19,722 nt of DNA from the IMG/VR virus record IMGVR_UViG_2623620491_000017, one strand, 5' to 3'. Under the pieces are notes generated by a model that was not told the DNA's origin, did no database searches, and was given only the letters and a program-made list of their open reading frames with translations. The position numbers and the translations under genes are program-made. The number at the start of each line of letters is the position of its first letter. Within the stretch, counting starts at the first letter, position 1. Below are positions 1 to 7,892 of this stretch, in pieces. This stretch comes from a virus. Its lineage: Duplodnaviria > Heunggongvirae > Uroviricota > Caudoviricetes.

Positions 1-981
1 TTATAACGTCACTCCGCCTTTTAGTGGATTCAGAGCGACGGCATTTTGCAGATAGTCAGGCGCAAGGTGCGCATAGGCCATCGTCTGCTGAATGCTCGCA
101 TGTCCCAGAATCTGTTGCAGTGCGATTATATTGCCCCCATTCATCATGAAATGGCTTGCGAATGTATGCCGCAGGATATGGGTTGCCTGATTGGGTGGTA
201 TATCAGGTTTCACTCTGCGTAAAATCCCGCAAAATTTCTCATAATCAACTTTGAATAATTTGGCGCTGGCCTCCTCTTTAACTTTTTTCTCCAGTTCCTC
301 AGAAATCGGCACGGTTCGCTTTTTACCGTTTTTGGTTTTCAGGAAGGTAACCCTGCAATTTGTAATCTGTGCTGGTTTTAGCGTGGCAACTTCCGTCCAT
401 CTTCCTCCAGTGCTCAGACATAAAAGCGCGACAAGTAAGTCATCACCAGCCAAAACATTTAACAGTTTTTCGATTTCTGCTTTTTCCAGGAACGTCATTT
501 CAGGGTTGGCCTCCGCCAGTGGCGGCAGTCCGTGAATTGGGTGTTGCCCGGAAAATTCATCCAATTGAATTAATTTTGTGAACATGCCGGATAATCGGTA
601 CATGTCACGGTTTATCGTTGCGGCACTGATACCATCACGTAGTCGCATGGAACGATAATCCATCAAAGCCCTTTTGCTCATCCTGTTCACTGGTATATCA
701 CCTATGCCGCTGATGGTTTTGAGTAGATGATTAAACTCTTTTGTTCCATGCTCGTGGTTTTGCCCGTGATATTTCCACCAGATGTCCAGCAACTCACTCA
801 AAGTCCGGCGGTCTGCTCGCTGGCCTCCCCATTCTTTCTGACTGGCATTGGCGATTGTGTATCGCTCAAATGCTAGTGCTTCAGCTTTTCTTTCGAATTT
901 CCTGCGGATGCGTTTTCCGTCGCGACCGCGAGGTCTAATGTCCACTTCATAGCGACCATCATCGAGCTTCTTAATTGCCAT
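1..981 (-). CDS. int: Tyrosine integrase (P2 Int-like site-specific recombinase)
   Basis: Translation carries tyrosine-recombinase C-terminal motifs (HILRHTFASHF box; LGHASIQQTMAYAH with the catalytic Tyr). Start placed at ATG 981 because GGAGGG lies 7 nt upstream; the longest ORF runs to 1011 but has no SD. Stop codon is at positions 1-3, so the gene is complete but any att site lies outside the window. Confidence 0.88.
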   Translation of the reverse strand: MAIKKLDDGRYEVDIRPRGRDGKRIRRKFERKAEALAFERYTIANASQKEWGGQRADRRTLSELLDIWWKYHGQNHEHGTKEFNHLLKTISGIGDIPVNRMSKRALMDYRSMRLRDGISAATINRDMYRLSGMFTKLIQLDEFSGQHPIHGLPPLAEANPEMTFLEKAEIEKLLNVLAGDDLLVALLCLSTGGRWTEVATLKPAQITNCRVTFLKTKNGKKRTVPISEELEKKVKEEASAKLFKVDYEKFCGILRRVKPDIPPNQATHILRHTFASHFMMNGGNIIALQQILGHASIQQTMAYAHLAPDYLQNAVALNPLKGGVTL

Positions 982-1050
982 AAGAAAGCCCTCCGGCGCT
1001 GTATTCACCATCTTGGTAGCAAATGGTGAAAATGTAATCTTTATATAGAG

Positions 1051-1926: not shown

Positions 1927-2423
1927 CAGTGATGACGCTCAATCTCGTTGAAAAACAGCCAGCAGCTATGCGCCGGATAATTGGCAAGCATCTTGCCGTC
2001 CCTCGCTGGCAGGATACATGTGATTATTATAATCAGATGATGGAGCGCGAACGGCTAACGGTTTGCTTTCATGCACAGTTAAAACAGCGTCACGCAACGA
2101 TGCGTTTTGAAGAAATGAACGACGTAGAACGTGAACGACTGGTTTGTGCAATTGATGAATTGCGTGGGGCATTCTCAAAACGCCGTCAGGTTGGCGCAAG
2201 TGAGTATGCATATATTAGTTTTTTAACAGTCAGTCAGCGTCGCACTTTATTTATGCACGCACGACTGACAGAAAAAGAATTTAACCAGCCATACTGGCGA
2301 ATTAATGAAGAATCATGTTACTGGCGTGATGCTTTATTCCGTGCATTACGTGAATTATTCAGCCTGTTTGAGTATGCACCGACAATTCTGACGTCGGTAA
2401 AACCAGAGCAATATCTGCATTAA
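1923..2423 (+). CDS. B: Replication protein B-like (166 aa)
   Basis: Position between cox and A. GAGGG (1911-1915) is 7 nt upstream of ATG 1923; the ATG at 1917 is too close to that SD. The 166-aa length matches P2 gpB as I recall. Confidence 0.7.
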   Translation: MTVMTLNLVEKQPAAMRRIIGKHLAVPRWQDTCDYYNQMMERERLTVCFHAQLKQRHATMRFEEMNDVERERLVCAIDELRGAFSKRRQVGASEYAYISFLTVSQRRTLFMHARLTEKEFNQPYWRINEESCYWRDALFRALRELFSLFEYAPTILTSVKPEQYLH

Positions 2424-2486
2424 ATAATTAACCAGAGTTTTTAACGCACTTAATCGTGCGGGGCTTCTTTTTGCCTGGAGAAAGTC

Positions 2487-2711
2487 ATGCATACAGTTTC
2501 TGAAAATCAGTGCGGTAAATACGCATTACTGCTGCAACAGGCCAGAACCGAAGCACAGGCTGACGCTGCGACGCGCTTTTCTTCTCATCTTGACTCCATG
2601 ATTCGCCACATCACAAAGGCGGAGTTATCCCGCGTGGAGATAGTCGAGCTGCTCAGTCAGGAGTCGGAAAAATTTCACAATATCGGATTGTCTCGCGGGG
2701 AGGTGCTTTGA
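2487..2711 (+). CDS. Hypothetical early protein (74 aa)
   Basis: GGAGAAAG SD immediately upstream of ATG 2487; translationally coupled to the next ORF; lies within the B-A interval of the early operon. Confidence 0.55.
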
Positions 2712-3013
2712 TGTCCTGTTCTCATTCAGTTGTATTACTGAATAACGCCTTAAAAATCGCCGTTATGAAAAATGGCGATTTGTCTCTTATTCAACTTTGT
2801 CTTGATAAAGAAAAACGCGACATCACTGAATCTGTTATCGCGATTTATCAGAATGAATTAAACCTCATGTCTGATGTGGTCAATTTACTTGTTAAACGCG
2901 CTGTATTCCACAAGCAAATTTCCTCAGTGGATGAACTGACAAAATTAACGACAGAACTTGCCAGCTATTGCGCTGATGAATTTAAAAAACTGAACGACAA
3001 AAGGAACTGGTAA
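2711..3013 (+). CDS. Hypothetical early protein (100 aa)
   Basis: GGGGAGG SD 7 nt upstream of ATG 2711; stop overlaps the start of the next ORF. Confidence 0.55.
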   Translation: MSCSHSVVLLNNALKIAVMKNGDLSLIQLCLDKEKRDITESVIAIYQNELNLMSDVVNLLVKRAVFHKQISSVDELTKLTTELASYCADEFKKLNDKRNW

Positions 3014-3237
3014 TGCCGGACAACGTAGATTTTATTCAGGAACAACAGGCTGAATTACTGGAGCGCCAGATTAACGCGGCAAGGGTAAAACATTGCGGTG
3101 TTTCTTCGCTGGTTTGCGAAGAGTGTGATGCGCCAATACCTGCTGCCCGTCGTGCGGCTTATCCGTCAGCCACGCGTTGTGTTTCCTGTCAGTCAGTCTT
3201 TGAAGCAAAAAACAAACATTACCGGAGAACGGCATGA
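3013..3237 (+). CDS. TraR/DksA-family C4 zinc-finger protein (74 aa)
   Basis: Translation contains CEEC-N17-CVSC (CxxC...CxxC), the TraR/DksA-type zinc finger; AAGGAA SD before the ATG. P2 encodes a TraR-like small ORF at this position. Confidence 0.7.
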   Translation: MPDNVDFIQEQQAELLERQINAARVKHCGVSSLVCEECDAPIPAARRAAYPSATRCVSCQSVFEAKNKHYRRTA

Positions 3238-3509: not shown

Positions 3510-5775
3510 AGCCTCCGGGCGTTTTGTCCCTCCGTCAGCATTTGCCGCAGGCACCGGTAAGGCGTTTACCGGTGCTTATGCATGGAACGCGCCACGCGAG
3601 GTCGTCGGGCGCGAAAGACCCCTTACACGTGACGAGATGCGTCAGGTGCAAGGTGTTTTATCCACGATTAACCGCCTGCCTTACTTTTTGCGTTCGCTGT
3701 TTACTTCACGCTATGACTACATCCGGCGCAATAAAAGCCCGGTGCACGGGTTTTATTTCCTCACATCCACTTTTCAGCGTCGTTTATGGCCGCGCATTGA
3801 GCGCGTGAATCAGCGCCATGAAATGAATACCGACGCGTCGTTGCTGTTTCTGGCAGAGCGCGACCAGTATGCGCGCCTGCCGGGGATGAATGACAAGGAG
3901 CTGAAAAAGTTTGCCGCCCGAATCTCATCGCAGCTTTTCATGATGTATGAGGAACTCTGCGATGCCTGGGTGGATGCGCATGGCGAAAAAGAATCGCTGT
4001 TTACGGATGAGGCGCAGGCTCACCTGTATGGTCATGTTGCTGGCGCTGCACGTGCTTTCAATATTTCCCCGCTTTACTGGAGAAAATACCGTAAAGGGCA
4101 GATGACCACGAGGCAGGCATATTCTGCCATTGCCCGTCTGTTTAACGATGAATGGTGGACTCATCAGCTTAAAGGCCAGCGTATGCGCTGGCATGAGGCG
4201 TTACTGATTGCTGTCGGGGAGGTCAATAAAGACCGTTCTCCTTATGCCAGTAAACATGCCATTCGTGATGTGCGTGCGCGCCGCCAGGCAAATCTGGAAT
4301 TTCTTAAATCGTGTGACCTTGAAAACAGGGAAACCGGCGAGCGCATCGACCTTATCAGTAAGGTGATGGGCAGTATTTCTAATCCAGAAATTCGCCGGAT
4401 GGAGCTGATGAACACCATCGCCGGTATTGAGCGTTACGCCGCCGCAGAGGGTGATGTGGGGATGTTTATCACGCTGACCGCGCCGTCAAAGTATCACCCG
4501 ACACGTCAGGTCGGAAAAGGCGAAAGTAAAACCGTCCAGCTTAATCACGGCTGGAACGATGAGGCATTTAATCCAAAGGATGCGCAGCGTTATCTCTGCA
4601 GCATCTGGAGCCTGATGCGCACGGCATTCAAGGATAATGATTTACAGGTCTACGGTTTGCGTGTCGTTGAGCCACACCACGACGGAACGCCGCACTGGCA
4701 TATGATGCTTTTTTGTAATCCACGCCAGCGTAACCAGATTATCGAAATCATGCGGCGCTATGCGCTCAAAGAGGATGGTGACGAAAGAGGAGCCGCGCGA
4801 AACCGTTTTCAGGCAAAACATCTTAACCGGGGCGGTGCTGCGGGATATATCGCGAAATACATCTCAAAAAACATCGACGGCTATGCACTGGATGGTCAGC
4901 TCGATAATGATACCGGTAGGCCGCTGAAAGACACAGCTGCTGCTGTTACCGCATGGGCGTCAACGTGGCGCATTCCGCAATTTAAAACGGTTGGTCTGCC
5001 GACAATGGGGGCTTACCGTGAACTACGCAAATTGCCTCGCGGCGTCAGCATTGCTGATGAGTTTGACGAGCGCGTCGAGGCTGCACGCGCCGCCGCAGAC
5101 AGTGGTGATTTTGCGTTGTATATCAGCGCGCAGGGTGGGGCAAATGTTCCGCGCGATTGTCAGACTGTCAGAGTCGCCCGTAGCCCGTCGGATGACGTTA
5201 ACGAGTACGAGGAAGAGGTCGAGAGAGTGGTCGGCATTTACGCGCCGCATCTCGGCGCGCGTCATATTCATATCACCAGAACGACGGACTGGCGCATTGT
5301 GCCGAAAGTGCCGGTCGTTGAGCCTTTGACGTTAAAAAGCGGCATCGCCGCGCCTCGGAGTCCTGTCAATAACTGTGGAAAGCTCACCGGTGGTGATACT
5401 TCGTTACCGGCTCCCACACCTTCTGAGCACGCCGCAGCAGTGCTTAATCTGGTAGATGACGGTGTTATCGAATGGAGTGACCCGGAGGTCGTGATGGCGC
5501 TCAGGGGCGCATTAAAACACGGACTGAGAACACCAAATCGTCAGCAAAGAAACGGAATCCCGTTAAAACCGCATGAAATTGCACCATCTGCCAGACTGAC
5601 CAGGTCTGAACGATTGCAAATTACCCGTATCCGCGTTGACCTCGCTCAGAACGGTATCAGGCCGCAACGATGGGAGCTTGAGGCGCTGGCGCGTGGCGCG
5701 ACCGTAAATTATGACGGGAAAAAATTCACGTATCCGGTTGCTGATGAGTGGCCGGGGTTCTCGTTACCCATTTGA
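3499..5775 (+). CDS. A: Replication initiation protein A (HUH rolling-circle endonuclease), about 758 aa
   Basis: Translation contains the HUH motif (PHWHMMLF) and the paired-tyrosine motif YIAKYISK typical of phiX174/P2 A-type initiators. Size and position match P2 gpA. Start set at ATG 3499 (MAVKASG...) rather than the upstream in-frame extension from 3457. Confidence 0.9.
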   Translation: MAVKASGRFVPPSAFAAGTGKAFTGAYAWNAPREVVGRERPLTRDEMRQVQGVLSTINRLPYFLRSLFTSRYDYIRRNKSPVHGFYFLTSTFQRRLWPRIERVNQRHEMNTDASLLFLAERDQYARLPGMNDKELKKFAARISSQLFMMYEELCDAWVDAHGEKESLFTDEAQAHLYGHVAGAARAFNISPLYWRKYRKGQMTTRQAYSAIARLFNDEWWTHQLKGQRMRWHEALLIAVGEVNKDRSPYASKHAIRDVRARRQANLEFLKSCDLENRETGERIDLISKVMGSISNPEIRRMELMNTIAGIERYAAAEGDVGMFITLTAPSKYHPTRQVGKGESKTVQLNHGWNDEAFNPKDAQRYLCSIWSLMRTAFKDNDLQVYGLRVVEPHHDGTPHWHMMLFCNPRQRNQIIEIMRRYALKEDGDERGAARNRFQAKHLNRGGAAGYIAKYISKNIDGYALDGQLDNDTGRPLKDTAAAVTAWASTWRIPQFKTVGLPTMGAYRELRKLPRGVSIADEFDERVEAARAAADSGDFALYISAQGGANVPRDCQTVRVARSPSDDVNEYEEEVERVVGIYAPHLGARHIHITRTTDWRIVPKVPVVEPLTLKSGIAAPRSPVNNCGKLTGGDTSLPAPTPSEHAAAVLNLVDDGVIEWSDPEVVMALRGALKHGLRTPNRQQRNGIPLKPHEIAPSARLTRSERLQITRIRVDLAQNGIRPQRWELEALARGATVNYDGKKFTYPVADEWPGFSLPI

Positions 5776-5844
5776 GTAAAAACACAACGTGATTTGATAT
5801 GGCATTGAATGGCTTATGCGGAGCAGTTATGGGGCAGCAGAAGG

Positions 5845-5882
5845 TCAATAGCATGCTGAATTAGAAGGCTAAATGCTATTGA
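5845..5882. repeat. Perfect 10-bp inverted repeat TCAATAGCAT / ATGCTATTGA separated by 18 nt
   Basis: Read directly: 5845-5854 is the reverse complement of 5873-5882. No flanking T-run, so it is not a terminator; a protein-binding site or RNA stem-loop is possible. Confidence 0.5.
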
Positions 5883-5990
5883 GTGACTAGCATGTCGGTA
5901 AGGACAGCCGTTTGATCCGGGTCATAAAAGGCCATCCATTTAGTCTAATAAAATCATTGCGGGTAACCTTATGTCGACGCATAATTCGTC

Positions 5991-6005
5991 TTGAGCGAAG
6001 TCTTG
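5991..6005. repeat. Direct repeat copy 1 (TTGAGCGAAGTCTTG), in the 3' tail of the early operon about 35 nt before the terminator
   Basis: Exact 15-mer also present at 6255-6269 with unrelated flanks. Confidence 0.6.
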
Positions 6006-6035
6006 TCAGTCTTTCATCGTATTGATGATGGGCGC

Positions 6036-6065
6036 AAAAAAACCACCCTGGCAGGTGGTTTTTTT
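6036..6065. terminator. Bidirectional rho-independent terminator (A7-CCACC-ctggca-GGTGG-T7)
   Basis: GC stem 6043-6047/6054-6058 flanked by an A-run (6036-6042) and a T-run (6059-6065), so it can terminate the rightward early (A) transcript and the leftward small-peptide transcript. Confidence 0.7.
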
Positions 6066-6077
6066 GTTTGAAGCATA

Positions 6078-6191
6078 TTAAAGCATAATGCTGACATTGA
6101 TATTACTGACGTTTACTGACAAACCACTCGGACTACCGTTTGGATAGCCAAAGAGGGCCAGAACGAGAATGCAGTAATAGCATTTCTTCAT
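6078..6191 (-). CDS. Candidate 37-aa hydrophobic peptide (MKKCYYCILVLALFGYPNGSPSGLSVNVSNINVSIML); possible small membrane toxin or exclusion peptide
   Basis: GGAGG (reverse complement of 6196-6200) lies 4 nt before the ATG. The N-terminal MKK is followed by about 12 hydrophobic residues and an uncharged Ser/Asn-rich tail. The gene ends 12 nt before the bidirectional terminator and has the orientation of lysogenic-conversion cargo in this slot. No homology search was possible. Confidence 0.45.
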   Translation of the reverse strand: MKKCYYCILVLALFGYPNGSPSGLSVNVSNINVSIML

Positions 6192-6254
6192 ATTGCCTCC
6201 TGTAAGTAGAGGGCAACTTCCACCGGTATATGCGCTTCTTAGGTGGAATGACTT

Positions 6255-6269
6255 TTGAGCGAAGTCTTG
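6255..6269. repeat. Direct repeat copy 2 (TTGAGCGAAGTCTTG), about 65-80 nt upstream of the peptide start codon on the coding strand
   Basis: Exact copy of 5991-6005. Confidence 0.6.
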
Positions 6270-6330
6270 CCCTGAAATAATGCTCTGTTTAAACGCAAAG
6301 TGATTTGGCATATCACCGAACAGAGAGCCG

Positions 6331-6385
6331 GAAAAACACAACATATAGTATGTCGTTGTTTCTAGACATACATTCTATGTTGTGT
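6331..6385 (-). repeat. Long imperfect inverted repeat (arms 6336-6354 and 6365-6385: 10 bp + internal loop + 7 bp) followed on the minus strand by TTTTT; terminator-like insulator or operator
   Basis: Read directly. The arms are AT-rich, so terminator function is uncertain. It sits between cos and the small-peptide gene. Confidence 0.35.
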
Positions 6386-6669
6386 AACAAGGGCTTTGCA
6401 TTAAACATGTTTGAGATTTTATTGATGTAGCTCAAAGTAAAAAACAGAGACTACGGATGATAAGGTCTTGAAAGCAATGTAAATTTTTTAAAGTTGCCAA
6501 TTGCTTAAAAATGTACAGTTGCGGTATGGCGTACTTAAAAAGCTATGCATGCAACAAGTGAATGTTTTTGCATGCGTTGGGGATGTCCGTTCAGGCTGCG
6601 TGCGGTCAGGACTGGTGCGGATCCATAGTATCTATGCAACTGCATTAAAACCGCCCCGTGAAGCGGGCG

Positions 6670-6688
6670 GGCGAGGCGGGGAAAGCAC
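6670..6688. other. cos: cos site: 19-nt cohesive-end sequence GGCGAGGCGGGGAAAGCAC
   Basis: Exact 19-mer that I recall as the P2/186 cohesive end, located about 170 bp beyond the portal gene stop as expected for P2-type genomes. Confidence 0.75.
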
Positions 6689-6830
6689 TGCGCGCTGGCG
6701 GTGGTGCTGATTTTATTTTTTCAGCGTCTGAGCGCGTCGTGATGGCGTTTAGATTGTTCGCCGGGGCGTTGGTGTGTCTGCGGGCTGTTTTGTGCGGTGG
6801 TGAGCGTGTGAGGGCGTGATGGCGGGTTGT

Positions 6831-6852
6831 AAAAAAGCCGCCCGCAGGCGGC
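6831..6852 (-). terminator. Rho-independent terminator of the leftward P-Q late operon
   Basis: On the minus strand the Q stop is followed by GCCGCC-ugcg-GGCGGC and then UUUUUU (A-run 6831-6836 on the plus strand). Confidence 0.7.
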
Positions 6853-6857
6853 GATGT

Positions 6858-7892
6858 TCAGCCGTTGTCAGTGTCCAGTGAGTAGTTTTTAAAGCGGATG
6901 ACCTCCTGACCGAGCCAGCCGTTTATTTCCCGAATCCTGTCCTGTAACGGGATTAGCTCATTGCGGACAAAGACCTTTGCCACTTTCTCAATATCGCCCA
7001 GTGACCCGACGTTCTCCGGCTTGCCACCCATCAACTGAAAGGGGATGCGGTGTGCGTCCAGCAGGTCAGCGGCGCTGGCTTTTTTGATATTAAAAAAATC
7101 GTCCTTCGTCGCCACTTCACTGAGCGGGATAATTTTAATGCCGTCGGCTTTCCCCTGTGGGGCATAGAGAAACAGATTTTTAAAGTTATTGCGGCCTTTC
7201 GACTTAACCATGTTTTCGCGAAGCATTTCGATATCGTTGCGGTCCTGCACGGCATCGGTGACGTACATGATGTATCCGGCATGTGCGCCGTTTTCGTAAT
7301 ACTTGCGGCGGAACAGCGTGGCCGACTCATTCAGCCAGGCAGAGTTAAGGGCGCTGAGATATTCCGGCAGGCCGTACAGCTCCTGATTAATATCCGGCTC
7401 CAGCAGGTGAAACACGGAGCCGGGCGCGAAGGCTGTCGGCTCGTTGAAGGACGGCACCCACCAGTAAACATCCTCCTCCACGCCACGGCGGGTATATTTT
7501 GCCGGTGAGGTTTCCAGTCTGATGACCTTACCGGTGGTGCTGTAACGCTTTTCCAGAAACGCATTACCGAACACCAGAAAATCCAGCACAAAGCGGCTGA
7601 AATCCTGCTGAGAAAGCCACGGATGCGGGATAAATGTCGACGCCAGAATATTGCGTTTGACGTAAATCGGGGAGCTGTGATGCACGGCAGCACGCAGGCT
7701 TTTTGCCAGACCGGTAAAACTGACCGGTGGCTCATACCATCTGCCGTTACTGATGCACTCGACGTAATCCAGAATGTCACGCCGGTCGAGTACCGGCACC
7801 GGCTCACCAAAGGTGAATGCCTCCATTTTCGGGGCGCTGGCGGTCATTGTTTTTACCGCAGGTTGCGGTGTTTTCCCTTTTTTCTTGCTCAT
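6858..7892 (-). CDS. Q: Portal protein (gpQ-like), 344 aa
   Basis: Size and position: first gene inside cos, leftward, translationally coupled to the terminase large subunit, as in P2. Confidence 0.85.
   Translation of the reverse strand: MSKKKGKTPQPAVKTMTASAPKMEAFTFGEPVPVLDRRDILDYVECISNGRWYEPPVSFTGLAKSLRAAVHHSSPIYVKRNILASTFIPHPWLSQQDFSRFVLDFLVFGNAFLEKRYSTTGKVIRLETSPAKYTRRGVEEDVYWWVPSFNEPTAFAPGSVFHLLEPDINQELYGLPEYLSALNSAWLNESATLFRRKYYENGAHAGYIMYVTDAVQDRNDIEMLRENMVKSKGRNNFKNLFLYAPQGKADGIKIIPLSEVATKDDFFNIKKASAADLLDAHRIPFQLMGGKPENVGSLGDIEKVAKVFVRNELIPLQDRIREINGWLGQEVIRFKNYSLDTDNG

Follow-up and report, generated by a model that had tools for sequence, protein, structure and literature searches.

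The window, by which we mean the whole 19,722-nt stretch of viral DNA analysed here, contains a compact unit in which two predicted transcripts would converge on a single bidirectional terminator, namely an mRNA of ~330 nt from the minus strand encoding a hydrophobic peptide, and a small RNA of ~74 nt from the plus strand that would be made from its own sigma-70 promoter. The ends of both RNAs were placed from promoter and terminator motifs. Neither promoter was recovered by a promoter and terminator scan, nor was the terminator, in which the T-run is taken up by the stem; the motifs were judged by their conservation among related loci. The elements of this unit are as follows:

5912-6486, both strands: the whole mobile module of ~575 bp as delimited by alignments, comprising small-RNA gene, bidirectional terminator, peptide gene, long leader and nrdDG-type promoter
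5957-5985, plus: small-RNA promoter, with TTGCGG at 5957-5962, a 17-nt spacer and CATAAT at 5980-5985, recognized by hexamer conservation
5993-6066, plus: predicted small RNA of ~74 nt and putative antitoxin, made up of a single-stranded 5' seed (5993-6007) and two hairpins, the second a terminator with U-tail, from folding and conservation
6035-6066, both strands: bidirectional intrinsic terminator common to both convergent transcripts, a 13-nt perfect inverted repeat
6078-6191, minus: peptide ORF of 37 codons plus stop and putative toxin gene, from direct reading and comparative coding evidence
6196-6200, minus: Shine-Dalgarno (SD) sequence GGAGG (CCTCC on the plus strand), with the GGAG core retained in all relatives
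6192-6365, minus: structured 5' leader of the peptide mRNA, predicted at ~174 nt with the start site placed from the -10 element
6255-6271, minus: target box GGCAAGACUUCGCUCAA, complementary to the 5' end of the small RNA and one copy of a 15-nt direct repeat
6336-6351, minus: NrdR-box-like 16-mer ATACTATATGTTGTGT, matching 6/6 conserved positions (C4, A6, A8, T9, T11, G13)
6372-6377, minus: -10 element TAGAAT of the peptide mRNA promoter, a position at which every relative, and likewise nrdD of E. coli and Klebsiella, has TAGAAT or TAAAAT
6391-6404, minus: FNR-type site 1, TTAATGCAAAGCCC, degenerate and located where nrdDG has its -33.5 site
6422-6435, minus: FNR-type site 2, TTGAGCTACATCAA, identical to E. 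coli nrdDG site 2 (-64.5)
6390-6491, minus: block homologous to the chromosomal treC-nrdD intergenic region, which holds the nrdDG promoter (80.4% identity to K-12 over 102 nt, gapless; pairwise E = 3e-24)

The peptide gene

The original prediction had proposed a 37-codon frame opened by GGAGG-N4-ATG, and direct reading of the minus strand from 6191 to 6078 confirms it: the ATG occupies 6191-6189, four nucleotides separate it from GGAGG, and the frame encodes MKKCYYCILVLALFGYPNGSPSGLSVNVSNINVSIML before a TAA stop at 6080-6078. In the mechanical list of ORFs these codons form the 3' part of an 88-codon frame (6344-6078), which was rejected as a gene since its upstream 51 codons hold stops in relatives in which the 37 codons stay open; the earlier choice of start codon was thus right. 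The bidirectional terminator claimed just beyond the ORF is likewise present, with a spacing of 11 nt, and not 12 nt, from the stop codon to the stem. The description of the gene as lying in cargo orientation is of little use, as the cargo of sister prophages (AAA ATPase, ImmA/IrrE, SIR2) is on the strand opposite to the ORF.

By its size alone the 37-codon ORF does not rise above chance, as the window has 116 ORFs of 50 codons or more, and we judge it to be real because of comparative evidence. A frame of 37 codons is present in 77/77 related loci, whose 16 distinct nucleotide versions specify 11 peptide variants. Variable sites are distributed over the three codon positions as 15/13/26, with the third position varying most (77 loci, 16 versions), and dN/dS lies between 0.06 and 0.41 in every pairwise comparison. 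The stop codon switches between TAA and TAG at a constant position among relatives, one allele having lost it, and frame length is also constant in peptides of 59-70% identity. Distant versions of 39 residues retain a pattern of CxC-hydrophobic core...G-Q-x-S-W...alternating tail. These comparisons establish the ORF as a real, conserved protein-coding gene with demonstrated coding selection. The mutation pattern among homologues, which had been proposed as a check on the small hydrophobic-peptide gene, is thus consistent with coding, synonymous changes being in excess, and the claim that the gene is real is upheld by constant length, dN/dS and third-position excess alike.

This gene is almost never annotated. 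A database query with the 37-residue peptide padded to 40 residues recovered two entries among 5.8 billion predicted proteins, and the ORF is annotated in 0 of 158 RefSeq genomes.

The peptide has a basic N-terminus followed by a hydrophobic core of about 11-13 residues (residues 4-14) and an uncharged Ser/Asn/Gly-rich tail in which polar and hydrophobic residues alternate. The core agrees in extent with the stretch of about 12 residues described originally as long enough for a membrane anchor; at this length it falls short of a full transmembrane helix and more nearly resembles a signal-anchor. Inspection of the sequence revealed no lipobox, and only one small residue, G15, is located towards the end of the core, where L13 at -3 makes for a poor signal-peptidase site; the lack of both features had been noted before. 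A single-sequence AlphaFold model has low confidence (pLDDT 60) and contains an N-terminal helix only. No match to the peptide was found at E<=10 in NCBIfam, Pfam or other protein libraries, and PHROGs returned nothing meaningful. These searches and a comparison with hhalign assign it to no family, in keeping with the earlier statement that the sequence was not recognised as any named E. coli small protein.

The predicted small RNA and its complementarity to the leader

The hexamers of the small-RNA promoter are invariant or nearly so, while the intervening spacer is wholly different in sequence between clades and nearly constant in length, with 17 nt in 75 loci and one nucleotide more in the other two (18 nt). 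Invariant sequence starts exactly at the G of GAGCG, the predicted 5' end of the small RNA, and the promoter and seed are found in 77/77 loci. The small RNA has a predicted fold of -26.4 kcal/mol (z = -3.3 against shuffles), and five pairs of its central hairpin have changed on both sides. The terminator is nearly invariant in all relatives, and since its arms (6035-6047 and 6054-6066) are flanked by A7 and T7 it can act in both directions. The phage early operon, too, probably terminates here, downstream of gene A.

An exact 15-nt direct repeat has one copy at the start of the small-RNA gene and the other in the mRNA leader, and because this repeat is present in both, the 5' end of the small RNA is complementary to the leader over 15-17 bp. 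The 13-nt core of the repeat occurs twice in the window, against 0.04 occurrences expected. The target box ends 64 nt upstream of the ATG in the window, and all relatives place the duplex 63-65 nt ahead of this codon. On the Leclercia and Salmonella plasmids, the two copies of the repeat alike read GGTAAGGCTTTGCTCA instead of GGCAAGACTTCGCTCA. Over the 16 intermolecular pairs, 95% of cells are paired, as against 26-47% when the partner is slid; three pairs have changed on both sides, and all one-sided changes within the helix yield G·U. Shuffle controls for this covariation gave 8-9/500 on two measures and were not significant on others, and the compensatory changes come from few independent lineages. 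At the level of sequence, complementarity between small RNA and leader, accompanied by covariation, is thus shown. Because the complementary segments are a direct repeat in the DNA, gene conversion could also keep them alike without selection for pairing.

Elsewhere in the leader, a hairpin CUCUGUU..GUGAU/AUCAC..AACAGAG is conserved with one compensatory pair, and a segment GGUGG/GUCGG can pair with either of two partners, both alternatives showing covariation. Helices of the form GGGCAA/UUGCCC in the window, GGUGGC/GCCGCC or GCCACC in Klebsiella, and GGUGGU/ACCACC in Leclercia covary by eye. Thermodynamic models give the SD an unpaired probability of 0.03-0.45, and a structured leader with a mostly paired SD is usual for type I toxin mRNAs. 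Partition-function models in which the box was blocked, bearing on an "SD-mimic" switch wherein binding of the small RNA would free the anti-SD, gave changes in SD accessibility that were inconsistent across relatives.

An nrdDG-type promoter on a mobile module

The promoter of the peptide mRNA resembles the nrdDG promoter of E. coli and Klebsiella in the homology of the upstream block and in the identical spacing of FNR-type sites, -10 element and, in relatives with two of them, NrdR-type boxes. The chromosomal promoter drives anaerobic ribonucleotide reductase, whereas the copy in the module would drive a 37-codon peptide gene on a mobile element. The nrdDG oligonucleotide and the positions of the FNR sites have been published (PMC10425943), and in each relative the predicted sites at -64.5 and -33.5 are spaced exactly as in K-12 nrdDG. 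For the Leclercia module, the corresponding block has a match at the nrdD locus of all 5426 E. coli genomes. These comparisons make clear that the promoter of the peptide mRNA and that of host nrdDG are homologous.

The homology to nrdDG stops around the transcription start, and in the window both FNR site 1 and NrdR box 1 have decayed. FNR site 1 scores 6/10 in the window, below the listing threshold of 7/10, with 8/10 in the E. coli clade of 86% identity and 8-9/10 in the plasmid versions. Control by NrdR, as described, needs two of the defined 16-bp boxes placed 15-16 or 26-27 bp apart (PMC13584703). The single 6/6 box of the window has no partner scoring at least 5/6 in the window; the Klebsiella variicola, metagenomic, Citrobacter, Leclercia and Salmonella versions have two boxes, each 5-6/6, with a linker of 15 or 26 bp. 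As the promoter is a copy of that of nrdDG, FNR is predicted to turn on transcription of the peptide gene under anoxia. NrdR would in addition hold the gene down at high dATP in most relatives, though probably not in the window. The prediction of FNR and NrdR control is weakest for the window's own copy, with its degenerate site 1 and one good NrdR box. LexA/SOS control, as in tisB and dinQ, was also considered and set aside, the alignments containing no conserved LexA box by eye.

Copies of the module reside in P2-like prophages of E. coli and on about 400 sequenced plasmids, most of which are large conjugative plasmids of Klebsiella. About 3% of complete E. coli genomes carry it, at the entry of the P2 defence-gene hotspot, and a scan of a genome collection with the alignment yielded one Citrobacter locus. 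It is 72-78% identical to Klebsiella, Enterobacter, Citrobacter, Leclercia, Salmonella plasmid and metagenomic loci, and the related loci from Klebsiella, Enterobacter, Citrobacter and metagenomes have no flanking genes in common with the prophage. Its neighbours are unrelated between prophage and plasmid contexts, and no protein gene accompanies it across these contexts. Such a distribution identifies the module as mobile between P2-like prophages and enterobacterial plasmids. Insertion sequences interrupt the leader at one locus (L015) and the ORF at another (L085); all three disruptions, namely these two and the stop-loss allele, are on the peptide side, and the small RNA is lost in none of the sampled loci. 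This asymmetric decay is the pattern expected of a toxin-antitoxin pair and hints, indirectly, at toxicity of the peptide.

Likeness to type I toxin-antitoxin systems

Type I toxin-antitoxin systems combine a small (less than ~60 residues) hydrophobic protein encoded by a short mRNA with an adjacent small RNA gene that has at least ~15 nt of complementarity. The module has counterparts of each, in a 37-residue peptide on a predicted mRNA of ~330 nt and in a predicted RNA with 15-17 bp of complementarity. The resemblance to type I toxins proposed originally is thereby supported and extended by a convergent small RNA gene with complementarity to the leader.

In the par system (Fst/RNA II) of Enterococcus pAD1, the convergent RNAs overlap only at a bidirectional terminator and pair via 5' direct-repeat segments outside the overlap. 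The transcripts predicted here resemble those of par and of Staphylococcus SprA1/SprA1AS in their convergence, common bidirectional terminator and repeat-derived 5' complementarity; antisense RNAs that lie on the 3' side and interact outside the overlap are features of these two Gram-positive families (PMC8594479). The module differs from par in that its peptide is not of the Fst type, no Pfam family matching it at E<=10, in having one repeat where par has two, in the position of its paired box, 64 nt upstream of the start codon where par has it at the translation initiation region, and in its hosts, which are Enterobacteriaceae.

The systems tisB/istR-1, zorO/orzO, shoB/ohsC and dinQ/agrB share with the module a primary transcript predicted to be poorly translatable, a separate small RNA and short (~15-30 nt) pairing with a long structured leader far upstream of the ribosome-binding site, and differ from it in that their small RNA gene is 5' of the mRNA and divergent, whereas that of the module is convergent (PMC8594479). 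Their toxins are helical transmembrane peptides with charged ends, and tisB and dinQ are LexA-controlled whereas the module has an nrdDG-type promoter. A permissive Rfam scan of 5600-7000 returned only sub-threshold terminator look-alikes, RNAI and the Phe leader, with no match to the IstR, OrzO, OhsC and AgrB models or to the hok/sok, ldr/rdl and ibs/sib antitoxin models; at gathering thresholds, the sole hit in three scanned plasmid loci was an AgrB copy that lies 0.85 kb away and is unrelated. The literature searched contained nothing relevant on the peptide, the seed, P2-linked type I systems, FNR-controlled type I toxins or NrdR boxes beside toxins.

Given the above observations, the module probably represents a previously undescribed type I toxin-antitoxin-like family, toxicity and repression being the parts that we infer from its design. 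Pairing of the small RNA with the leader would keep the peptide unmade, and because the pairing site is far from the ribosome-binding site this effect would have to be indirect, whether by blocking a ribosome standby or loading site, by triggering RNase III cleavage or by refolding the leader. Once made, the peptide would insert in the inner membrane and harm or arrest the cell, an action that would favour retention of the element or abort phage infection.

Several other explanations of the locus have to be weighed against this one. That the ORF is a chance frame in non-coding DNA, of which RNA structure or promoter elements alone are conserved, would agree with the high conservation of the whole of 5975-6365, non-coding parts included, and with the near-absence of the ORF from the output of gene callers (2 of 5.8 billion proteins, 0 of 158 RefSeq genomes). 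It is scarcely credible in view of a frame whose length does not change across 16 nucleotide versions or among peptides of 59-70% identity, of the synonymous excess with dN/dS well below 1 in every comparison, and of the retention of a stop as TAA or TAG together with the SD. The repeated 15-mer might instead be a DNA-level site, either two protein-binding sites or a recombination target, with no pairing between small RNA and mRNA, and its nature as a direct repeat whose copies change together in distant relatives would suit such a role. This too we regard as very improbable, since no protein gene travels with the module in its various contexts, one copy begins exactly where the conserved promoter would start transcription, the one-sided changes within the helix are all wobble-compatible transitions, and the surrounding hairpins and terminator fit an RNA.

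A closer relationship, namely that the module is a very divergent member of timP/timR (RyfA) and hence no new family, is raised by the layout of TimP, which has 38-41 residues, a basic N-terminus, a short Cys-containing uncleaved signal-like core, Leu at -3 and an Asn/Ser-rich tail (PMC7667032). The peptides are similar in size (37-41 residues) with alike N-termini of the form M-K/N-x-x-C-x-C-I-V/L-L/V-I/L (K-12 TimP begins MKIRCFCIVLIV...) and Asn/Ser-rich polar tails, and on both sides, for the module by prediction, an mRNA of about 300 nt has a 5' leader with which a small RNA pairs without being a perfect cis-antisense (PMC7667032). Yet a profile-profile (hhalign) alignment covers the first 11 residues only, at a probability of 9-10%, on which ground homology to TimP was rejected; a search with TimP retrieves Escherichia and Shigella TimP only; and the peptide has no NCBIfam match at E<=10, nor one in any other library, just as the Rfam RyfA model (RF00126) has no match at E<=1. 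TimR is moreover divergent and upstream where the small RNA of the module is convergent and downstream, the paired sequences are unrelated, and timPR is a core-chromosome locus with another promoter type, whereas the module resides on prophages and plasmids with a terminator common to both RNAs. Membership of that family is accordingly unlikely. Somewhat less remote, though still doubtful, is the view that the same two-gene module encodes a non-toxic small membrane or exported protein with a role in anaerobiosis or nucleotide stress, whose level the small RNA tunes; a peptide that modulates a membrane protein or transporter would be an example. The nrdDG-type promoter suggests regulated, purposeful expression and not a silent killer gene, the peptide combines a short, signal-like core with an uncharged tail, in which it differs from many pore-forming type I toxins, and many small membrane proteins regulated by small RNAs are not toxic. 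Against this, the unit behaves as an autonomous selfish cassette with unrelated neighbours on prophages and plasmids, its three disruptions are all on the peptide side with none in the small RNA, and TimP, which comes nearest to the module in design, is a toxic peptide whose core is likewise short and signal-like (PMC7667032).

If the toxin-antitoxin reading is right, the module would be a candidate new type I family in Enterobacteriaceae with a gene layout so far described only for Gram-positive systems and, as far as is known and in the literature searched, the first of its kind to be placed under a ribonucleotide-reductase promoter of the FNR/NrdR type, offering a testable link between oxygen or nucleotide status and a putative mobile-element toxin. 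With this module, elements that matter in practice, namely the P2 defence-gene hotspot and the large conjugative plasmids of Klebsiella, gain an unannotated gene pair, and the two database entries for the peptide illustrate how such genes escape annotation.

A more speculative extension, to which we give little weight, is that the element captured the host nrdDG promoter and keeps re-capturing it, so that the peptide gene would report anoxia through FNR and falling dATP through release of NrdR, with the constitutive small RNA setting the threshold of a metabolic tripwire. In the anaerobic gut, or whenever deoxynucleotides are drained by a lytic phage or by replication stress, the toxin mRNA would then outrun the small RNA and the cell would be arrested, amounting to abortive infection or to element addiction suited to the niche. 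In each genus the promoter block all but equals the nrdD promoter of the resident chromosome (47/48 in E. coli prophages, 71/73 in Klebsiella), which under such a scenario would reflect ongoing recombination between element and chromosome.

A conserved coding gene in a mobile module

On the minus strand of the window, GGAGG and a 4-nt gap precede an ATG (6191) that opens a frame for the product MKKCYYCILVLALFGYPNGSPSGLSVNVSNINVSIML, with its stop at 6078. The original prediction of such a 37-codon ORF ending near a bidirectional terminator is correct by sequence, the distance from stop to inverted repeat being 11 nt. An ORF of this size is not unusual alone, and the case for it is built on comparison with its relatives.

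Features of the window (window coordinates)
1-1011, minus strand: integrase
ends at 5775: replication endonuclease gene A
5957-5985, plus strand: predicted small RNA promoter, TTGCGG-17 nt-CATAAT, with conserved hexamers
6035-6066, both strands: predicted bidirectional terminator, a 13-nt perfect inverted repeat between A7 and T7 which can terminate transcription from both sides
6336-6351, minus strand: NrdR-type box, one perfect box, without a partner in the window
6377-6372, minus strand: predicted -10 element of the peptide mRNA, TAGAAT, conserved
6391-6404, minus strand: FNR-type site 1, degenerate
6422-6435, minus strand: FNR-type site 2, TTGAGCTACATCAA, identical to K-12
6858-7892, minus strand: portal gene Q

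Of 5426 complete E. coli genomes, 158 carry the region, and these fall into two main clades (~99% and ~86% identity) with no annotation beneath it in any listed record among these matches. It is found too in three phage records, one of which annotates exactly the 37-codon ORF, as hypothetical. Translated searches recovered full-length 37-residue relatives with 59-70% identity on ~395 plasmids, nearly all from Klebsiella and mostly conjugative IncFIB/FII, and further relatives in one Citrobacter genome, 31 viral contigs and 32 metagenome contigs. Gene callers overlook the ORF, which has two entries among the 5.8 billion predicted proteins searched. The 77 loci compared hold 16 nucleotide versions of the ORF and 11 peptide variants, every one of exactly 37 codons. 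A mechanical ORF list gives a longer 88-codon frame; in the 86% clade stop codons interrupt its upstream extension and the 37 codons remain open. Third codon positions vary most (15, 13 and 26 variable sites at positions 1, 2 and 3) and dN/dS is 0.06-0.41 in every pairwise comparison. The peptide retains the invariant core C-I-L-V-L-x-L-F-G-Y-P...S-G-x-S..V, and its design is kept in more distant 39-residue versions from Leclercia and Salmonella IncFII plasmids (MNRRNCICLFVLALISQMVVGQGSWMIYIHQISLSIQVN). Taken together, these comparisons establish the ORF as a conserved coding gene. Within it, an 11-nt inverted repeat (6098-6108 and 6172-6182; 10/11 complementary) links the start and end of the ORF in the mRNA, and a 29-nt stretch, TACTGCATTCTCGTTCTGGCCCTCTTTGG, is identical in E. 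coli and Citrobacter, synonymous sites included; these features hint at RNA structure constraints within the coding region.

Conservation extends beyond the ORF, with 5912-6486 being 72-78% identical to loci on plasmids where it stands among unrelated genes (IS elements, ABC transporters, tra genes and a RES-domain, toxin-type gene). The moving unit is therefore ~575 bp long, and we take its mobility as established. The window belongs to a P2-like prophage in which the ORF and its module lie between genes A and Q, in the known variable "hotspot" of P2-like phages. The left-hand 745 nt are common to sister prophages and the cargo that follows differs: E. coli W has an AAA ATPase pair, ST131 has ImmA/IrrE with two more genes, strain EC2001 has a SIR2 protein, and strain EC12 and the window have none. 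Another module-bearing sister prophage has a 333-residue hypothetical protein as cargo. In the window, 6487-6857, from the module to the cos/portal side, holds no cargo gene, leaving the hotspot otherwise empty, and inverted repeats lie at 6547-6575 and 6778-6847. In the EC2001 locus (L007, NZ_CP133811.1, 1170-3000) a deletion has joined what is left of cox and of gene A, each truncated and annotated as a pseudogene; the module and the SIR2 cargo gene are intact nevertheless. Several complete E. coli assemblies (genome matches H40, H41, H47, H49, H53 and H60) match at exactly 2278-3022 (or 2278-3019), and their chromosomes have therefore been rotated so that base 1 is the first of the P2-like gene A (2277 nt). 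Presumably a start-fixing tool took the phage replication gene for a replicon start gene.

A predicted small RNA gene and its complementarity to the leader

An exact 15-nt direct repeat, TTGAGCGAAGTCTTG, occupies 5991-6005 and 6255-6269, and its 13-nt core occurs twice in the window versus 0.04 times expected. The first copy lies just 3' of a plus-strand promoter motif and 30 nt 5' of the terminator. In an alignment of 23 distinct versions both hexamers of the motif are invariant or nearly so, the 17-nt spacer keeps its length but differs in sequence between clades, and the alignment is invariant again from exactly GAGCG onwards, a pattern that has the look of a working promoter and transcript start. 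The predicted 74-nt RNA (5993-6066) has a free 5' end (the seed), a hairpin and the terminator, and folds better than shuffled controls (z = -3.3); its central hairpin differs in sequence by clade and keeps its pairing, with changes on both sides of five pairs. All 77 loci retain an intact promoter and seed. Conservation of this putative partner RNA gene can be considered established from the alignments.

Because the direct repeat is read from opposite strands, the 5' end of the small RNA is complementary to a box in the peptide mRNA leader. The duplex comprises 15-17 bp (RNAduplex -29 to -37 kcal/mol, some values including longer-range contacts) and in all clades ends 63-65 nt upstream of the ATG. 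The seed does vary: both copies are GGTAAGGCTTTGCTCA in place of GGCAAGACTTCGCTCA in the Leclercia and Salmonella modules. When 16 intermolecular pairs were counted across nine distinct seed/box combinations, 95% of cells were paired versus 26-47% with the partner slid by 1-3 columns. Three pairs are changed on both sides (G-C to A-U twice, U-A to C-G), the expected G·U intermediates are found in other lineages, and the sole disruptive one-sided change affects the terminal pair. Matched changes might also arise, with no RNA involved, through gene conversion between the repeat copies; given this possibility and the few independent lineages, the covarying complementarity between predicted small RNA and leader, itself established, is strong but not conclusive support for RNA pairing.

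Judged from the conserved -10 element, the peptide mRNA should start near 6365, which would make the transcript ~330 nt long and its leader ~174 nt. One leader hairpin, CUCUGUU...AACAGAG, is invariant and has an inner stem with one compensatory pair. Another leader segment (GGUGG or GUCGG) has two possible partners, one upstream and one downstream, and a single three-way covariation preserves both pairings. Most Shine-Dalgarno bases are paired in partition-function models (unpaired probability 0.03-0.45); a switch in which small RNA binding frees the anti-SD segment found no consistent support in these models. Available accounts of tisB/istR-1 (standby-site occlusion and RNase III cleavage) and of zorO, dinQ and timP (leader refolding) offer precedents for silencing from far upstream. 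Another direct repeat, which is imperfect (73% over 30 nt; AAACACAACGTGATTTGATATGGCATTGAA and AAACGCAAAGTGATTTGGCATATCACCGAA), lies directly after the gene A stop (5780-5809) and in the first leader hairpin (6291-6320), and may be a relic of partial module duplication.

The nrdDG-type promoter

With the Leclercia module as query, its first ~100 nt matched the treC-nrdD intergenic region in all 5426 of the complete E. coli genomes. The window block 6390-6491 is 80.4% identical to K-12 DNA upstream of nrdD over 102 ungapped nt, an alignment that establishes it as a homologue of the nrdDG promoter and the putative peptide promoter as nrdDG-derived; the homology stops around the transcription start. 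[quoted passage not shown] Every relative has FNR-type 14-mers at exactly the K-12 nrdD spacing, 51 and 20 nt upstream of the -10 start. NrdR boxes are 16 bp long (conserved C4, A6, A8, T9, T11 and G13) and paired with a linker of 15-16 or 26-27 bp, both boxes being required (PMC13584703). The versions from Klebsiella variicola, metagenomes, Citrobacter, Leclercia and Salmonella have NrdR-type boxes where nrdD has them; the window copy of the promoter is the most eroded. Homology and site geometry point to control by oxygen and NrdR, whereby the peptide mRNA would be produced chiefly in anaerobic conditions and, in most relatives, on release of NrdR.

Copies in E. coli prophages agree with the nrdD promoter of E. 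coli at 47/48 positions and then diverge, and a Klebsiella-type copy agrees with that of K. pneumoniae at 71/73, which suggests repeated recombination of the mobile element with the resident chromosomal nrdD promoter. The promoter block is nearest to the nrdD promoter of the carrier genus in the window (6390-6491) and at the related loci L001, L070, L083 and L084.

Relationship to known toxin-antitoxin systems

The window has no Rfam family match, only sub-threshold terminator look-alikes; an Rfam AgrB copy elsewhere on one plasmid is unrelated to the module. The peptide matches no Pfam, NCBIfam or PHROG family, and a search of one full-text library for the peptide and seed strings returned no relevant paper. 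The closest system in peptide design is TimP, a toxic inner-membrane protein (38 residues in Salmonella, 41 in K-12) with an uncleaved signal-like N-terminus, repressed by TimR through the leader (PMC7667032). K-12 TimP and the peptide share an M-x-x-x-C-x-C-I start; however, profile comparison gave only 9-10% probability over 11 residues and homology was rejected, a TimP search did not reach the 37-residue family, and the two systems have different RNAs and gene order. The Gram-positive par (Fst/RNA II) and SprA1 systems come nearest in gene layout; like the module, they have convergent genes, a common terminator and interaction by 5' repeats outside the overlap. In the Gram-negative ShoB, TisB, Zor and DinQ families, with non-overlapping RNAs, the small RNA lies 5' of the mRNA, whereas 3'-side antisense RNAs belong to Gram-positive families (T1TAdb, PMC8594479). 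Judged by sequence, the layout and promoter of the module are unusual and it belongs to no named family; on these comparisons we class it among type I toxin-antitoxin-like systems, as a new family.

[quoted passage not shown] It is rather unlikely that the same module encodes a non-toxic, regulated small membrane protein. The module is autonomous and occurs on plasmids among other addiction genes, with a dinQ/agrB-like pair 1.2 kb away on one and a RES-domain (toxin-type) gene on another. Among sampled loci, damage is confined to the peptide side: ISKpn34 severs leader and promoter in one locus (L015), ISKpn26 lies inside the ORF in another (L085), and a peptide allele on a 4.89-Mb contig (P0075, NCBI genome) has lost its stop codon, runs to 68 residues and carries L13S in the hydrophobic core, and may represent an inactivated toxin. 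Such one-sided damage, in small numbers, is what is expected of a peptide harmful without its RNA. Transcription, repression, toxicity and membrane targeting, and a role in element maintenance or phage exclusion, are what we infer from these features. The pair on the Klebsiella plasmid NZ_CP065834.1 (L010), at a distance of ~1.2 kb on the upstream side of the module, consists of a DinQ-like small ORF (...IDKAIIVLKALIVFLELIRMFF; 1182-1322, minus) and an above-threshold match to Rfam AgrB (1569-1656, plus; 45.1 bits), and is a second, known type of type I toxin-antitoxin adjoining the module.
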